Source of the DNA: Trichoplax sp. H2
Lineage: Eukaryota
Assembly: GCA_003344405.1 (NCBI GenBank)
Contig: NOWV01000016.1
Coordinates: 124,001 to 188,000, forward strand
Length of the DNA: 64,000 nt
Reading direction: 5' to 3'
Below, one piece after another: positions 3,201 to 34,200 of this stretch (positions are counted from its first letter, which is position 1; each line of letters begins with the position of its first letter). The position numbers were made by a program, and so were the translations under genes. Below the pieces are notes generated by a model. It did not search any database. It worked only from the letters and a program-made list of their open reading frames with translations, and was not told where the DNA came from.

Positions 3201-6200
3201 TTTTGCTATTGCTGCGGCTGCGTACGTTTGGATTAAAGGTAAAATTACATATAGCTATCTCAGTATACATCGATTGTAGGATATCCTATCCGACTTATCA
3301 AACATTATTGAGGGTGTAAAATTTTATAAATAGGAACAGAAGATCCTTCTCGTAACAGATATAAGCTTTTCCTGGAGTGTACGTTTATATTAACTTCTGT
3401 TGTACCGCCCGAATTACCAATAGAACTATCTCTTGCCGTTAACAGCTCTTTAATGTCACTTATTAAGCTTGGTAAGACAAGGATAACTACAATTCTAAAC
3501 TGATACTATTAAATCTGATTTGAATATAGAAACCGGTCTTTGCATGTTTTTTTATTTGTCTTAGATGCTAATACTGATTATCTGCTTCCACAGGTATTTA
3601 TTGCACTGAACCTTTCAGAATACCTTTTGCTGGAAAAATTGATGTCTGTTGTTTTGATAAAACTGGTACCTTAACAAGTGATAATTTGATTGTGACTGGC
3701 ATCGCAGGCTTAAAGGAAGGTTGCAAATTGACAGAAATTTCGGAAGCTCCAATGGAAACTTTACGAATCCTTGGCACATGTCATTCTTTGGCAAAGCTTG
3801 ACGAAACCTTTGTAGGTGATCCATTAGAGAAAGCAGCGTTGAAAGCTATTGACTGGTCATTTACTAAAGGTTAATTAAAACATATTTTAATGCCCAAAAT
3901 TTGATACCGAGTTAATAAACTATAAATTTCTTATTAGATAATTTCTTTTATTAATAAACTAAATTAGATGATGTCGCCATTCCGAGGAAAGGATTTCGCC
4001 AAACATTACGTATTGTTCATAGATTTCATTTCTCTAGTGTTTTAAAGAGGATGTCAGTAATTTGTTCAATGCAAACTCCACAATCCAGTATTAGTAATTA
4101 CATTGTAACAACTAAAGGAGCACCGGAAATCTTAAAAAGAATGGTACGATTTATTGCATTAAAAGTATTGATTATAAGTTCGCGGATTTATGACATTTAA
4201 TCCGAAATTGATTTATTTTTGTAATAAAGTTTAAAGAAGTCCCTAAAGATTACGATTCAGTACATGAAGAAATGGCCAGAAAAGGTGCTCGCATCTTAGC
4301 CTTAGGTTATAAAGAAATAGGCGAACTTACCAGCGTGCAATTGCGTGAGATGACTAGAGAACAAGCCGAAAACGAATTAATATTTGCAGGATTTGTAGTC
4401 ATATCTTGTCCATTAAAATATGATTCAAAAACCGTCATTAAAGATTTAAAGCACTCAAGTCACCATGTATGATAAAAAATTCTTTTGTTAACAGTACGCG
4501 TATAAGTTAGATTCTTTTGCATTCATTTGAATAAAACCTTTTGTATTCGTTCACTTTCAGCTAATTATGATCACTGGCGATAGTGCTTTGACCGCCTGCC
4601 ATGTCGCTAAAGAATTAGAAATTGTGACAAAACCTACTCTTATTTTGAAGAAAACAAACAACGGTAACTCCAGCTATCTATTAATCATGTAACATCCGGG
4701 ATTACTGCTATCCTCATTTATTAGATATTAATCAAATTTTGTGATGATAGATGATTGGTTGTGGCAATCAATCGATAGAACAATTAATCTGCCTCTAATG
4801 GAAGTAGAAAAGAGGAACGAATTTGTATCGAAATACTGTTTATGTGTTACTGGAGAGGTAAGTTAAATTTAGTTTTAATTTATGTTACGATTATATTTCT
4901 GTTGAATGCAATTGTCAAGATATAAAATTATTTATATATGTTTATTACAAATAAAATGCAGGGATTACCTGAAATTATTGCTACTAAAACTAGTAAGGGT
5001 AAGAGAACCCTATTTGAAACATTATTACCGTTTATACAAGTCTTCGCACGAATGGCTCCGAAACAAAAAGAAATTGTCATTACAACATTAAGAGAACGAG
5101 GCTTTATTACCTTAATGTGTGGAGATGGTACAAACGATGTAGGAGCGTTAAAACATGCTAATGTCGGTTAGTCATATAACGATTATTAAATCAATCTTTT
5201 TATATTATACTAGTATCTGAAAATTGTCGTATAAATTAATGCATTCTTTCGTGGTTCACTGTAGGTGTTGCATTATTAACTCATGCTCCTCAACCAAAAG
5301 CTGCAACTAAGTTCGAGCTGTCAGGGAAAGATTTACCGGTAAGAAGCAAATACTTAGTTACACGAAGTTAATTAACTTTGATTACAGTTTGGATTTGTAT
5401 TGAAATAGTTATAATATTGTTATTTGATAGATCGACAATGGCGATACTGATGAACTTAAGAAATCTCCACCATCCAATAAAAAATCTTTAATTGACAAAA
5501 GAACTAAAAGGCCCATTGAGCAATCAAAATCAAAAAATGACAAGCACAGTTCCGCTGAGGTAACTGGCTTATTAAGAAGCTTCTTATAATGTGTCATATG
5601 CTCAAATATTTAATTAATAGATTCAATATTATTTTAGAAATCGGTTGCAAAGCTGTTAAAAGACATTGACGAAGGAGATCAACCATCTGTTGTCAAACTT
5701 GGTGATGCATCTATTGCTTCCCCTTTCACATTCAAATTCTCATCTACTATCTGTAGTAAGAAATAATGTTTGCCTATATATATGATGGATGATTTATTAA
5801 ATGCTTAATTGTAAGAATTACTAAATAGATTTTCTCATTTTCACCCGTACAGCTACTCATATTATTCGCCAAGGTCGTTGTACCTTGGTGACAACGTTGC
5901 AAATGTTCAAGATTTTGGCTCTTAACGCGCTTGTTCTTGCTTACAGCCAAAGTGTTTTATATCTAGATGGAATTAAATTTAGTGACAGGTGCTTACCGGG
6001 ATCTGAAATATTTCCATTTCTAATAATGAATATAGATATCCTTATAGCTTATAAACTGTGTAAAATATTGAAATTAAGACCTATTACCCATCGGTTATTC
6101 TTGTAGTCAAGCGACTTTGCAGGGTGTTTTGCTTGCTGGGTGTTTCTTGTTTATCTCTCGATCGAAGGTATACGCGTATGTTGTGGCTTTAATTATATCA

Positions 6201-24792: not shown

Positions 24793-27700
24793 ATGGCTGA
24801 TGTAGAAGGAGCTGTGGAAAAAGAAGATACGCCAAGGCAGACACTTGAAAATGGAGAGGAAGAGGTAAGCGATATCGTTAAAGTAGAACATAGAGTACGA
24901 TTCAATAAGCAGTTGCAAGTTGATGTTTAAAACATGATGATTGAAAACATCACTTTTATCGACTTGTATTGGCGTTGGATAGCCTCAGATCAATTTAGAA
25001 CTTGGCCAGTTGGATTTAACCTCGCAAGACGATTACTTTTTAGATGAAGTGGATGGTAAGTGTATAGGGTATATTTTATACGGTAGATGACAGGAAATGG
25101 ATCTTGACAGGAATGGATCTTGTTTTTGATGGAGATATCCATTAGAGAATTGGATCATCTTGATGACTGTACTGTTACTTTGATGATCGTGAAAACAATA
25201 CTTTTGCATCGAATCCACAACGTTATTGATATATTGATGTCAGTATATCTTCTGATTGATAGTGCATATTCAAGAAAATCTAGAAGATGAATTAGTCCAA
25301 GAAGCACTTAAAACGGTATAATCACTATCGGTAGAGGCTTGACTCAGCTTTGATATCATCAGTTGAATTCTTTCCTATGGACTATTTTATGTAGGGTGTC
25401 GATTTACGACAGTACTCACGACAGATACAGCGTGAGCTTTGCGTTGTGGAGAATTCATCTATACAAGATTGTATCCCCTCCTCGTACTTTGTACAACATT
25501 TAACGTACTATTGCTACATTCATTCAAGTAAACAATCAAACTTATTAGAAGTGATATAGCAATGCTCTTTAACTAAGACTTAATATACAAAGATATCAAA
25601 GAAAGCGAAAATATTGCCAGTTTACATTATCAGATTGCTTCTTGTGACTCTCTCCTAGAGGTAATGTTCATAATGATCAGTCTACTGCTAAATACTGTTA
25701 TAAATCTTAAACTATTGTTTCAATGCCTAGTGTAAGTCTTAGCTTAACAGTCATATTTAGCCTCTCGATGTTGTAATCAAGACTTTTTTCGCTCCGATAG
25801 GTATTTATTTTCTCCTACATTAGATTATCCTTAGAATTATAATTGTACATATTGTCTAAGTTAGCTATAGGACTCGAGAGAGTAGAGATACCATTGCTTT
25901 TTTCCATGATGCTCTTAAAATGATTCACCAATATTACGTTCTAAAGATAATACCAATGTTTTGATCAACATGAATTGAACTCGTAGTCAATCAGATGTAC
26001 TTGTGCATACAATTATTACTGTAGATTGTACGGATAAATCTATTTATGTCTCAAAATAAGGAATCAATTTGTATTTTTCGCAGCTTATGATACTAATAAC
26101 TCATTTTCTTTCTTCTATTCCAGCGAATGGAACAGATGCTAAGTAGCTTTCAGGTCATTATTTATACTTACACTGGAGACGTATTAATGATATGTTTAAT
26201 TTCTAAGACTTGGATTTATTGCTTGCTAACGATAACAGACTGACTTGCGTAGCATTAGTACAGAAATTCAGACCTTACAAGAGCAATCTATGTCTATGAA
26301 TATTAAATTAAAGAATCGACAGGTAACTCAATTTGTACAATCTATGCTGTACGAAGATGATAAAGTTATTTATTGATGTAGTTATCTATAATGAAATCCA
26401 ATTAATACTAACAATTCTTCAATGTCATCAGTCGGTTAGGAGTGAACTTAGCCAGTTCGTTGATGAAATGGTTGTTAGCGATTATCTTATAAAGTCAGTA
26501 TATAGAATCATTTATTTATTCTGTATTTGCTTTTATTGATCTACTGTATACTGCAAAATTAACTGCAACCTTGCTTTATCTATTAGACATATTTGTGAGA
26601 CTTCTGTAGTCGAACGTGCTTTTATCGAATGTTTACACGAACTAGCACATAAAATTAATTTCTTAAAGGAGCAAATGTTTCGTGATACATTGGCTTGCGA
26701 AGATGTTAAGGATGTCATCGAAAAACTGAGAGTGAAGGTTATATTTCAGCGACATTGTCGCCTATTATCACCTTTATGCAATCCATTAAATTATTCCCCT
26801 ACATTAATTTTTAGGCCGTAAGTAAATGTCGTGATTATTTGCTCGGCAAAATTTATCAGTTCCGTAAGCCTATGGCAAACTATCAAGTTCCACAGGATAC
26901 GCTATTACGTTATAGGTAAGACTTTTCCTTCAGAAGAGGTCATTGACGCTACTCATTTATTCAGTAATTAACACTCTGCTATTTACTTCCTTGTAGATAT
27001 TTTAATGAATTTCTTATGTCGAATCATCGTCAAGTTGCCACAGAAGTGCGGGATGTTTACCTGGAAACTATGAGCAAAATCTATTATTGCTATTTCCGTG
27101 GATATATTACAAAATTGTTAAAATTGCCTGTAAGTTATGAATAGTAATTGTAATACTAATAGTAATATTGAGCCAAAACGAAGCTTGCATCTTTTGAATG
27201 TGTATTTACAGATAGAAACTATCGCTGAAAAGGAAGATTTAATAGGAACAGAAGATTCTACTAGACGAGATATCTTTCTAATGTGCTTTATGCACTCTTT
27301 CTAATTTTTTACTTCATTGTAGCACAATTCAATCAATAAGTTAATAAGATAGTCCTTGACAATGAAGTAACCCTGTTTTCAGTTAAAACGGTCGTAAAAA
27401 ATCGATCAGCTATATTTTGTTTAGGACACCGAATATGCGTCTTAACAACTGAACTGAATGATCCAATCATTGTACCTCATACTGCTGGTAAAGGAGATAA
27501 AAAGGTTTGTCATTTTAACATTTCTCTAGGATCTAGATTATGTTTCCAAATTAAATTACTGACATTGCAAACTATCTATCTATTAATAGCATTCCTTAGA
27601 AAATATATTTAGAAGTGTTCAATTCGCTTTGGCGGATAACTGTTGCCGTGAATACCAATTTGTAGTTGATTTCTTTAATGCAAGTGGCTCACGCGCACAA

Positions 27701-29409
27701 GATTTATTTACCAGCATATTAGGAAAAACACTTCACTTATATTTGGTAACTTTATTGCAATTTAAATTACAGTATAGTTACGTAAAGATTTTTATATGGG
27801 CTGTAATTGAAGACTAACCAAATATCTTGATGTATAGAAATATACTGATATGTACTTAGAAGGATGTTATGATGGAATTGGTGTATTATTGTGCTTGCAT
27901 CTTGCATATCGCTACCAAGAAATGATGGAGAAGAAGAATATTCCATGCCTTGAAAAGTAAAGTTATCACTATTATTATTCCTTGGAAACAATTGACAGTA
28001 TCGCTTATCCATTATCAAATTTTTAAGATGTAATTCATGTTATATACTTACCATTTTGAAGGTACTGGAACTCTTTGCTTGCCAATATTTGGCCTAAATT
28101 TGCACATATTATGGAGCTTAATATACAAAGTATTAGGGATATTGACCCACAGAAAGTCAACAATATCGATATTAGGCCTCATTACGTAAGTATATATACA
28201 AATTTTGCAAGATTCCACACGACTAGATGTTGTAATTTATTCATTCAAGTGCTGCCGATATAAACAGATAGATTTTCTGTTAGGTTGCCCGCCGATATAC
28301 TGACTTTTGTCAAGCTATATTAACAATTAATGAATTTCATGCAGATGAAAAGGTATTATGCTAATACTTTTAATCATTATTATTCACGTTTGATTTACCC
28401 CTTGTTATTTTCATCTTCTTTATTTGAACGTAAATAAACTTCATCCTCAATTTTTTTTTCACATAGGCTATGAAATTGATGGGGCAATTACAAATGGAAG
28501 TAGAAAACTTCATTTTGAGAATGGCTGCAGAATTTCAGCATCGAAAGGAACAGTTAATATTTTTAATAAACAACTACGATCATATGATGACAGTAAATCT
28601 AGTAAGAATGGCCATTAAATTATTACTACCTATGTTATTGCAGTTTTTGATAGTCGTTGATATTGCCGTAGTTAAACACTAATTTCATTTTGTATTAGGA
28701 TCGGGTAAATGACGATGGATCACATCATGAAAGTTTCCAACAAACTCTAAATGCACGTATTCAAGAATTTGTTGAGGAGGTACTGCATTTCGGTAATGTC
28801 GTTGTTTATTAATTTAATTTTGATCACTAAAAGGTTTGTATATATATTTTTTATTTAGATTCTACAACCTAACTTTGGAGGTATGATTAATTTTGTTAAG
28901 GAAACTGAAAATGCTATTGAACATGGTAATAAAGTCCATGTTGATGAACGTAAGTAAGAGTATTTTATCATCGACTCTAGACAGTTTGTTCATTTATATG
29001 AGCCGTACCAACACTCAATATTGTGTATACACAGGTCGTATAAAAACTTTAATCCAATCATTCAATGCCGAATGGAAGAAAGCCATAGATAATATAGATC
29101 ACGATGTTATGCAATCATTTACTAACTTTAAGAATGGAACATCAATCTTACAGGTAATATTTTGCATCCAATCAATTTACTTGAGACTATGATTGGTATA
29201 CTCATAGTGATATTTGTATAAATATAACTTACATTGGTCTCTTATTGATTGTTATTTTATAGGCCGTTTTAACACAATTAATTCAATATTACCATCGTTT
29301 TCAAAAGATCCTTAATCAGTCTCCGTTTAAAAATTTAACCTGTCGCAATGAAATTATTAATATACATAATGTAATGGTTGAAATTAAGAAACATAAGACA
29401 TCTCTCTAA
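24793..29409 (+). CDS. VPS52: Vacuolar protein sorting 52 (GARP/EARP subunit), multi-exon, with two U12-type introns
   Basis: Exons give GVDLRQYSRQIQREL...DYIKESENIASLH...MEQMLSSFQTDLRSISTEIQTLQEQSMSMNIKLKNRQ...FRKPMANYQVPQ...DIRPHYVARRY...FLINNYD...SFTNFKNGTSILQAVLTQLIQYYHRFQK...INIHNVMVEIKKHK. An in-frame upstream ATG at 24748 is an alternative start. Confidence 0.95.
25471..25592 (+). other. Putative U12-type (minor spliceosome) GT-AG intron in VPS52
   Basis: 5' site GTATCCCC (U12 consensus RTATCCTT), branch-like TCTTTAAC at 25566-25573, no polypyrimidine tract before the AG. Removal restores the conserved D-Y-I-K-E-S-E-N. Confidence 0.65.
27270..27370 (+). other. U12-type intron in VPS52 with AT 5' end and non-canonical 3' end (AA at 27370, or AG at 27367)
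   Basis: 5' ATATCTTT at 27270 and branch point TCCTTGAC at 27353-27360. The reading frame is restored only with a 3' end at 27370 (AA) or 27367 (AG); AC at 27371 gives a stop. Confidence 0.8.
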
Positions 29410-30526
29410 AGAGATATTCTATTTAAGATATTATTGTAAAATGCAAGCCTTTATGATACAATACCGTGTAGCTAATAGCCAGTAACTCAACTCATACTTT
29501 TTGCACACACATACGCATATATATATATACAGTATATATAGGGTATTATTGTACGGCGACGATGTCAGTATCAAGTAATATATCTACGTATATTCTAGAA
29601 ATTGTACTGTATATCTCTGATGAACTTAAAAGTAATATGTTGCAATTTTTAAGATCCTTGAATGCGTTAGCCAAGTATTTGGATATTTTTAGTAGATTTA
29701 AAAATTTTTGAATTGATGTAAAAGCATTACTTGATTTATGGTACTCATGAGTACCGTACCCAAGCTTACGCATAACTAGATATACCGTACTCCTATAATA
29801 AATTAAAATATTTTGAAGTTAGCCTAACTTTCAAAGTCGCTTTTGCTATATTGTATTATCTTTTTAGTTATTGGAGTGTAAGTACTCCTGGTTTACAAGA
29901 CATCACGTTACAGCATCAGCAATCGATTGTCAATTATACTGTACGTATTGTTTTCACTCATTCATTCTATAATTATAAATTTCATTATTATGGCTTGGCA
30001 TGAGAGTATTTTCATCTTTGGGAAGATCCAACCAGCAAATAGTCCTATGCATAAAGCCTACTACATCTTATTCTTATTACTTATAATTATAGATGATCAC
30101 CTAGTAGAATCTTGCTACTAGGCTGTAAAACCTTTCCGTAGTTGTAGCTTACTGCCAGAGGTCCAATCTCTAATTTACTATCAGTAGTATTACTAGTATA
30201 GTTGCAGTGATCCCTGCTCAAGTATAGTAGTTAGAACTTCCATCATCCAGTTTCGCGAAAATTAGGCTATTCTGCAGGTGTACAGTACCTATTTTCACCT
30301 ACTAGTAGTATTAGCAGGTTTAATCAGTACAGTAAATGGCGAAGGACCTAAAGACTAATTCATTTCAATTACCTTGCAATAAAAAGAATCAACTAGGACT
30401 TTGCTACCATTCCACATTACGCATATAACCTTTCGATAGTCTACTGACTATAAATGGAAACAATTCCATTGCAGATGTGGCTTATTTTTAAATTTTTATA
30501 CCAAGCCAAATTAGGAAAAGTAGTAG

Positions 30527-31026: not shown

Positions 31027-31298
31027 AAAAAATACTTGCAGATAAATATGCAACAGTACGATGAAGAGCATTTCAGTGAAATTGGCGATGTTTTCCATAA
31101 TATCCATTAATAGTAGGTTGTACATTTCTCCATCAAGACCACATTGATCAGTTATACTGTACAACAAGCACGTTATTTCATTTCTTTGAGTTGCAGAGAT
31201 TTGGACTATGCAAAATCTCCATCATCATCTCCAGTAGTAGAAATAATTGAAAGAGAATATTGAAGTGATCAGTCAACATACAAAATTCCACAGCAAAA

Positions 31299-34200
31299 AT
31301 GACTGACCATTGCATACGTCAAGAAGAAAACAAAGAAAATGTAGCATCATCTGAGCCGTTTCTAAAATTTGTCCCATTTAATGGTAGTCAATCGGCAGCA
31401 CAAACACAAACTGAAGATGATCATCCTGTTTTAGTATTGAAACATTTTGCTCAAGTACCCAAGCTCTATTTTGATAAAGTCAAAGTTGGCCGAAACAAAT
31501 CGATTTTATTAACGATTGTCAATCCATCGTCCAAAATACATCATATCAAAGTTGGAAAAGTATCTGAATTAAAAGGCTTTACAGTCAATACAACAACATT
31601 AGCTATCCAACCCGAGAGTCAACAACAACTCGAAATTACCTGGAATCCTAAAGTCGTTGGCTCAGTTCACGATACTTTGGTTTTAGTAAGCCAAAACACT
31701 CACCGATTACACGTAGTTCTTAATGGAACTGCTATTGAATCGCCTCATAAGGTATGATTAACTTACACATATTTGATAGCACGGTATTTTAGACGATATT
31801 TGAAGTTGAAACTGGAATAAAATACAATATGCCGTACATTACATACTGTATCGAAATACATAGTTCAAAAGAACATGTTGAATCTTATGATTACACGTAC
31901 AGTACACGTATATCTTGCTCGGCTATAGTATACCAATTACGGTCAGCTAATGCGCCTAGATTAAAAATAACGTCATTTCTAACCGATCCTTGTGGCTAAT
32001 AATTATAATTATTTTTATAATTATTGTAGAAAAGAACCGGGCGAAGACTTAATCAACAACGTCATCAAGTTAATAATAAACTACACAAGGTAATGGAAGA
32101 GACTATGCAATCGTCGTTCATCATAATCAATTCATCTAATATTGATGCTATCAATGTTGAAATGGACTGATAAACTGACAAAGTATTGTAGCAACTGGGT
32201 GTACTTATGGAAGTAATGTAAAATTTTTATGTTATCTTTTTTCACACGTTAGATTAACACATCGAAGCCAAATCAGAAAGCAGTACTAAATACAGTCATT
32301 GATGTCTTACAGGGAGACGCTAACAAGGTGACCATAACATCAAAAATTCAAACTTATAGTAATGTATAATAATTTAAAGGATCTAGCCAATTAATCTTAT
32401 ATGTGTTGATATCCATGTATTATTTAGAATAATAAATCGGAATCAAATCAAAAAGTTCCAACAACAACTACAACGGATGCTGTACAAAATGATACGAAAC
32501 ATCAAGTTCAAGACGAACAAACTAATGTATCAACTTCAAATCATCATCAACAATATGGCCAAGAAAAATTTGTCAATTCCCAGTTGGTTGATTTTCAATC
32601 AACTAATCATGATAACCAATTAAAAAAAAGTCATTTTGGTAATCATATTATTCGAGAAACTTACACTAAATCGGAATTGGAAGATTCTCTATTAGGAAAT
32701 GTTGATTCATGTCCAGATGATAAAGAAGACAATGATAATAACAACCGTAATAATAGCAATCTTAACACCCAAGAAAGTAATTCCAAGACAGAATTTAAAG
32801 TTCGTATCAATAAGACCATTCCTAATAAATGCGTCAAGGCCAAAGTAAACTCTGAAAGTACTGCTAAGAATAAGACTAAGCAACAACAGCTTCAGTCTTC
32901 ACAACGCAAGGGTAATAAAGATAAACTGTTAATAAAAATACTAGTAAACGATATATAGATTTAATATTGCGTTATACTTATCTCCTATCTCTTTTGCTTA
33001 TCTATGGGCATATCTGCCTAAAACTTTCCTTGTAGCCACTCTTCCAAAAACATTCAACATAAGGGGCATAGCTCAATCTCGCCTGCGACTCATTTCTAAT
33101 GGATCCGGTTAGTTGACTCTATTTTGATTGATAACAATGTAGCGTATCTATTCTACTTCTGATTGTAATGTTGGTATATTCAAATACTTCTTTAATACAG
33201 CAGTTAAGAAAACCAAAACAATCTCACCATTTGCAAGTCAAAATAATTGTTACGATGATCGCTGGATTGATAAGCAAGAAAGAGGTCAGACATTGACGTT
33301 TTCTGAGTATTAAATACGCATAACTCTTTATTCATATTGCAATTAAATACTTTATAAAAATCTTAATTATTGTTATTAATGACTTGCAGGATTTACGTGT
33401 TGGCTTAATTTTATTCTTGTTCCTTGCGAAGATGGCGTATCTATGAACAAATTTGTAACCAAAGGTAACTAATTCTAAAATACCTGGTATCTACTAATAT
33501 CCATTTATCATTCGATGAAATTATCTAACTACATCTCTCTTGTATTATAGTTGATGCTAGTACCCTAGCACTAACAACGGATACAACAACACGACAGTAT
33601 CATCCGACTAAAGATACCTTATCATACAAAAATTATGAAAATCGAAAGCATTTAATGATGCTAAGGAGAGCAGCATGTATATTATACCAATCGAAGCCAG
33701 TTAGAATGGTGGTAGAACGTATTACTGATGCTGTAAAAGAAAGAAAATTTACATTCAAACTGGATGCTAATATTCATAGTGATTTAGGTATTAATTAAAA
33801 TAATTTTTCATATTTTCAATTTATTAAATATAGCGGTAGATATAGTGTTTCAAAATTAATATAAGATTTTTAATTGACTATAATTCTCAATATGACTAGG
33901 CCTCAAACAAAACTTGTTAGATCTATTGCTATCATATAATCCACTTTGGCTACGCATTGGATTAGAGGTATATTATTATGTTGATAAGATGCTATGAAGG
34001 AATTAAAATAACGATTTTAATAATTTCTGATAAATATAATATATTCTGATCACTCTATAAGACTTCCAGAACAATTAACGTATCGAAATAACTAAAAATT
34101 CTTCTCACATTGATACTGTATCATATCAATAAAATATTACACTCTATATCTCAAGCGCTGATATAAAGTGAAGCGATTTAACATATTAATTTGGTATTAT

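Follow-up and report, generated by a model that had tools for sequence, protein, structure and literature searches.

An AT...AA intron with U12-type splice signals in the VPS52 gene of Trichoplax

Within a 64-kb window of Trichoplax DNA (the whole stretch analysed, to which all positions refer), the VPS52 gene is interrupted by a segment that begins with AT and ends with AA. A sequence-only reading of the window had proposed that this segment is a minor-spliceosome intron with non-canonical ends. The locus raises the question of whether RNA is in fact joined across these positions, whether the AA end could instead reflect a base lost from the DNA sequence, and which machinery is likely to remove the intron. 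Here we document how the RNA is joined, what the DNA reads at that junction, the splice motifs beside it and its orthology with a human AT-AC intron, and we conclude that in Trichoplax VPS52 the bases 27270-27370, with their AT-AA ends, very probably form a minor-spliceosome (U12-type) intron that belongs to the A-type (AT-AN) class. A direct check against the sequence found every coordinate of the earlier reading to be correct (Table 1).

The VPS52 locus and the reading frame across the intron

The gene at this locus is VPS52. Matches to the Pfam domains Vps52_CC and Vps52_C lie in plus-strand stop-to-stop ORFs between about 25000 and 29500, and the translation of the exon at 27590-27745 (52 residues) is 100% identical to two public proteins that their sources call VPS52, P0001 from Trichoplax adhaerens (628 aa) and P0002 from Trichoplax sp. 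H2 (680 aa). Together with the AT-rich DNA of the locus (GC about 0.29-0.40), these domains and identities indicate that we are dealing with placozoan VPS52. When the 16 RNA-supported VPS52 exons were joined by their coordinates, they formed a single open frame of 518 codons. Downstream of VPS52, a plus-strand open stretch of 162 codons at 31269-31757 carries an ASH (ASPM/SPD-2/Hydin) domain (E 3.6e-27) and probably belongs to the next gene as one of its exons.

Table 1. Positions in the window of the AT...AA intron, its signals and neighbouring VPS52 features.
Feature	Position	Strand	Basis
VPS52 exon, 59 nt (…IETIAEKEDLIGTEDSTRR and the first base of an Ala codon)	27211..27269	+	RNA contigs X6, X9
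U12-type intron (very probable), 101 nt, AT...AA ends, phase 1	27270..27370	+	RNA junction in X6 and X9; sequence
5' splice site ATATCTTT	27270..27277	+	sequence
Branch site TCCTTGAC, putative branch A at 27359	27353..27360	+	sequence
Purine-rich spacer CAATGAAGTAA, ending in the used AA (27369-27370)	27360..27370	+	sequence, RNA junction
AG inside the spacer	27366-27367	+	unused in the RNA contigs examined
Canonical-looking AC, 1 base past the used 3' end	27370..27371	+	sequence
CCC run at the start of the downstream exon	27371-27373	+	sequence
Downstream VPS52 exon (…(A)LFSVKTVVKNRSAIFCLGHRICVLTTELNDPIIVPHTAGKGDKK)	27371..27504	+	X6/X9 pieces 27371-27502
Next VPS52 intron, GT..AG	27505-27589	+	RNA contigs
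Second candidate U12-type (GT-AG) intron, beginning GTATCCCCT	25471..25592	+	RNA contigs, human position match

The exon upstream of the intron ends …GATTCTACTAGACGAG at 27269, and the sequence-only reading had argued from the frame that few ways of leaving this exon are open. We arrived at the same picture. Reading through the intron reaches a stop after …RRDIFLMCFMHSF, 12 further codons on, and when the in-frame donors and acceptors were enumerated, GT-AG pairs were absent and the candidates were limited to weak GC-AG pairs starting at 27285. Ending the intron at the AC (27371) shifts the frame to …RRACFQLKRS and a stop, which is the ninth codon past the junction. The AA end (27370) gives the open frame …EDSTRRALFSVK, and on translation the AG end at 27367 adds the one residue that had been predicted for it. 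A U2-type intron was rejected, since there is no in-frame GT-AG pair and the junction found in RNA (see below) is AT...AA. Inside the downstream exon, a good U2-like acceptor, cctgttttcag, lies in frame at 27372-27382 on the plus strand, 12 nt past the used 3' end; its use would delete four residues.

We aligned the RNA-derived protein with 22 named non-placozoan VPS52 orthologues (24 rows, counting two placozoan models). At the codon split by the junction there is no gap relative to 20 of the 22, the remaining two, Hydractinia and Clytia, carrying a single additional residue just upstream. Over the surrounding segment, the length is equal in 11 of the 22 orthologues, one residue shorter after …FF in 8, and one residue longer in Oscarella. 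The result was no different in an earlier alignment that used 40 unnamed representatives. The match to vertebrate EDTAKKGFFS that the sequence-only reading had put forward is borne out by the orthologue alignment.

The junction in RNA and the DNA sequence beside it

Of 22 public sequencing runs that were found, 20 contain all or some of the stretch, and 3 are recorded as RNA. We compared four of the 22 (X1, X4, X6 and X9) with positions 25000-29600, all of them in the form of assembled contigs rather than raw reads. The share of words in common with the stretch was 0.91 for X1 (DNA-like), 0.42 for X4, 0.39 for X6 and 0.32 for X9; X9 is on record as RNA-Seq, and X6 is RNA by a program's guess only. 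Each of the splice joints listed (15 of 20) occurs in both X6 and X9 (15/15 in each), and none occurs in the contigs of X1 and X4, which indicates that X6 and X9 are spliced RNA and that X1 and X4 are unspliced. X4 consists of unspliced pieces with zero joints, and it serves here as a check on the DNA sequence alone.

The joint from 27269 to 27371 falls outside the 15 joints listed, and we reconstructed it from contig pieces, loose letters and the variant table. In record 16 of X9, 10 loose letters, ACTAGACGAG, equal 27260-27269 and are followed directly by 27371-27502, and record 15 holds 31 letters of exon 27211-27269. In X6, record 14 (1956 nt) aligns over its positions 456-590 with 26994-27128, continues with 59 letters, and aligns again over 650-781 with 27371-27502. 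We assign the 59 letters to 27211-27269 because the joint from 27128 to 27211 shows a side of 59, and a variant at 27259 sits 11 letters from the end of the piece. Position 27269 is therefore joined to 27371 in both X6 and X9, two runs from different studies with different organism labels. The letters that neighbour the junction differ (27269 is G and 27370 is A; 27270 is A and 27371 is C), so there is no microhomology, the position of the cut is fixed, and the intron is 27270-27370, 101 nt long with AT...AA ends. These are exactly the ends that the sequence-only reading had preferred.

That same evidence bears on the possibility that the joint arose artificially during library preparation or assembly, by template switching or as a chimeric contig, or that the major spliceosome removes a non-canonical intron here independently of U12. 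Either explanation would be helped by the evidence being contigs rather than reads, and by the one mismatch between the 5' site and the U12 consensus. Each would, however, have to account for the recurrence of one junction in two runs of different studies, for a cut that cannot be moved along the sequence, for a product that is in frame and fits the orthologues, and for a U12 branch motif placed 11 nt from the end, with no pyrimidine tract, in an intron whose positional orthologue in human is U12-type. We consider these explanations very unlikely and retain splicing at AT...AA as the reading of the joint.

The contigs were also inspected for cDNA with another donor or acceptor, which the earlier reading had named as evidence that would refute it. 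In the contigs of the four runs only the joint between 27269 and 27371 appears here, with none to AG at 27367, AC at 27371 or AG at 27382, although contigs may hide rare forms. Because assembled contigs drop rare variants, minor isoforms that use the AC or an AG, or that retain the intron, can neither be counted nor excluded from these data.

The end of the intron depends on the CCC run at the start of the downstream exon. If one C of a CCCC run had been lost from the stretch by an assembly or sequencing error, the intron would in reality be AT-AC, as its human orthologue is; RNA alone cannot separate the two cases, since the mRNA reads GAG/CCCTG (the slash marks the junction here and below) with four C's just as it does with three. 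Three sources argue against a lost C. Record 1 of X1 (25000-28358, 3359 bases) differs from the stretch by 12 substitutions and 0 gaps and keeps the CCC; because of its 12 substitutions, we take it to represent a different haplotype with the same run. Record 10 of X4 (27317-27545) has 0 differences from the stretch and likewise keeps the CCC. P0001, which belongs to a different assembly (its …IESLH… corresponds to …IECLH… in the stretch), reads …NEVTLFSVK in frame through the CCC, a frame that needs three C's. The search for a fourth C at 27371-27373 thus returned three in X1, in X4 and in the frame of P0001, these DNA sources being other than the strains that gave the RNA. The gap-free CCC in X1 and X4 rules out a hidden AT-AC intron in those sequences, and we regard a lost C in the stretch as extremely improbable; the AT-AA ends stand.

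Some further variation was seen among the runs. X1 has 12 substitutions in 3359 bases, and over 25000-29502 these variants recur among the runs in differing combinations, which points to several haplotypes or strains in the public data. The joint from 27128 to 27211, found in both RNA runs, has the ends TG..CA with no leeway. Position 27129 is T in the stretch, X1 and X4, where it precedes a normal GTAAGT…CAG intron, and G in the RNA. The simplest reading is a synonymous CCT/CCG polymorphism in the final base of the exon, although the split falls exactly between the RNA and the DNA sources.

Splice signals and the proposed mechanism

The consensus of the U12-type 5' splice site is RTATCCTT, and that of the branch site is TCCTTRAY, located about 10-15 nt from the 3' end of the intron. 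The 5' site of the VPS52 intron, ATATCTTT, agrees with the former at 7 of 8 letters; the exception is +6, where a T replaces the C. The branch site at 27353-27360 that the sequence-only reading had reported is present; it reads TCCTTGAC and fits the latter. From the candidate branch A the distance is 11 nt to the AA end, as stated before, 8 nt to the AG at 27367, also as stated, and 12 nt to the AC end. The spacer that follows the branch site has 3 pyrimidines in 11 letters and lacks a polypyrimidine tract; between positions -18 and -4 the intron has 7 pyrimidines in 15, compared with 6-14 of 15 in the other introns of the gene. Among the 16 RNA-supported VPS52 introns, the motif CCTTRAY occurs in this one only.

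We asked how often such motifs would be expected in the stretch. ATATCTTT occurs 9 times (10.2 expected, no enrichment) and RTATCCTT 7 times (6.94 expected). TCCTTRAC also occurs 7 times, where 2.66 were expected, and 1 of 100 shuffles reached that number. Taken alone, then, the motifs do not exceed chance; the presence of both at the exact ends of an RNA-supported junction does. A loose scan of the stretch that paired U12-like 5' sites with branch motifs returned pairs that were mostly kilobases apart. Besides 27270/27359, the short pairs ran from 60244 to 60118 or 59945 (minus strand), from 11799 to 11724 (minus strand) and from 3281 to 3674.

On the strength of these motifs and of the orthology described below, we propose that the minor spliceosome cuts this intron and that the A at 27359 is its branch point. 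By analogy with minor splicing in general, U11 and later U6atac would pair with the 5' site, and U12 would pair with the branch site, with a G-U pair at its G and with A 27359 bulging out. Distance from the branch point, 11 nt in this intron, would then chiefly decide the 3' cut, and variation in the identity of the last base would be tolerated. Under this scheme the AG 8 nt from the branch A would be too close and the AA at 11 nt would be used; a cut after the AA would join G/CC into an Ala codon, whereas use of the AC, 12 nt away, would shift the frame, and its product, if formed, might be degraded. An Rfam search at the gathering threshold, considered for U11, U12, U4atac and U6atac, gave 0 matches within the 64-kb window. 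Trichoplax is reported to have single-copy genes for U11, U12, U4atac and U6atac, with expression of U4atac verified (Hertel et al. 2009, PMC2655684).

The proximity of the AC leaves room for the AA to be one of several 3' sites, with the AC or the in-frame AG at 27367 or 27382 also in use and the contigs showing the stable, productive form only. The AC is the canonical partner of an AT 5' end and lies 12 nt from the branch A, its early-stop product could be degraded, and contigs lose rare variants; no such joint is present in the contigs of four runs, however, and additional sites would supplement splicing at AA rather than replace it. We view such alternative use as possible but on balance unlikely. 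A stronger version, in which the minor spliceosome uses both AA and the overlapping AC, whose spacing from the branch point is just as suitable, and use of the AC yields a decay-prone transcript that acts as an unproductive-splicing valve on VPS52, is speculative, and we think it improbable. If the AC were also used, the intron would offer a natural test of distance against base identity in setting the 3' site of A-type minor introns.

Gene models and comparison with known minor introns

Both public models of the protein lack the 59-nt exon upstream of the AT...AA intron. P0001 runs from …KLLKLP into IVLDNEVTLFSVK by way of an AG at 27347-48, and P0002 runs from …KLLKLP into VRHRICVL. We attribute the skipped exon and the invented junctions to annotation pipelines that disallow AT-AA ends. 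As both public models skip the intron, catalogues based on annotation would probably miss it, and the RNA-supported structure corrects the Trichoplax VPS52 gene model. Relative to the RNA-derived frame (25262-28601), P0001 also lacks …GVDLRQYSRQ…CDSLLE and …VARRYTDFCQAILTINEFHADEK. In P0002 an additional LIYKD follows …SSIQDY, at the position of a candidate second minor intron.

That second candidate lies at 25471-25592 on the plus strand, with the boundaries …CAAGATT/GTATCCCCT and ACAAAG/ATATC and a partial U12-like 5' site. Between positions -18 and -4 it has 6 pyrimidines in 15, the lowest value of the 16 VPS52 introns, and it contains the imperfect branch-like motifs CTCTTTAAC (20 nt from the end) and GACTTAAT (9 nt from the end). 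The second U12 intron catalogued for human VPS52 is GT_AG, with the boundary …CGGGATT/GTATCCTCC (PMC8280824). This human intron (exon end …ATTCGGGATT, …IRD/Y…) corresponds to Trichoplax …IQD/Y… at 25470/25471 in the same phase; a placement at KCRD/Y in exon 26813-26912 was rejected in favour of …IQD/Y. The intron at 25471-25592 could represent a second minor intron or, alternatively, one that is drifting to the major type.

De Wolf et al. 2021 (PMC8280824) catalogue two U12 introns for human VPS52 in their supplement. The other of these is AT_AC (chr6:33267322-33267681, minus strand), with the boundary GCAAAGAAAG/ATATCCTAG and the 3' end …CTTAC/GATTCT (PMC8280824). A comparison with the orthologous intron of other organisms, suggested in the sequence-only reading, was made for human, and it places this U12-type AT-AC intron at the same codon position and in the same phase 1 as the Trichoplax intron (A-K-K-G/… in human, T-R-R-A/… in Trichoplax). 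Both have an A-type 5' site (human ATATCCTAG, Trichoplax ATATCTTTC), and in both the branch motif ends …TGAC. They differ in the last base (human C, Trichoplax A), in length (360 nt and 101 nt, respectively), and in the T at +6 of the Trichoplax 5' site. The human VPS52 minor intron therefore has a placozoan counterpart at the same position and phase, which signifies deep positional conservation.

AT-AA ends are known from other minor introns. Sheth et al. 2006 (PMC1557818) count 3 human, 4 mouse and 1 Arabidopsis intron of this kind, with RASGRP4 and FLJ21106 in human and mouse and MSH3 in human as examples. The MSH3 intron is AT-AA in human and AT-AC in mouse, a case of switching between species (PMC1557818), and the C and A last bases of the human and Trichoplax VPS52 introns fit such published AT-AC/AT-AA switching. 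The description of AT-AA introns as very rare holds in absolute terms, but it needs to be qualified by their being the commonest non-canonical ending among animal and plant minor introns (Larue and Roy 2023, PMC10639083); among conserved minor introns of animals, about 3.8% end non-canonically (PMC10639083). The word Trichoplax has 0 occurrences in the main text of that paper. Literature searches on VPS52 with U12, or on Trichoplax with AT-AC or U12-type introns, gave no placozoan or VPS52 case of AT-AA as judged by titles and the beginnings of abstracts, and a database entry may exist.

The A-type introns of de Wolf et al. 2021 (PMC8280824) group AT-AC, AT-AA, AT-AG and AT-AT, and splicing of this AT-AN class depends on CENATAC (PMC8280824). 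The Trichoplax intron has the AT 5' end of the class, in which the last base is variable. With the catalogued AT-AA introns of RASGRP4, FLJ21106 and MSH3 it shares U12-type signals combined with AT...AA ends, and it differs from them in gene and in lineage. The VPS52 intron is a well-documented instance of this known rare subtype and calls for no new mechanism.
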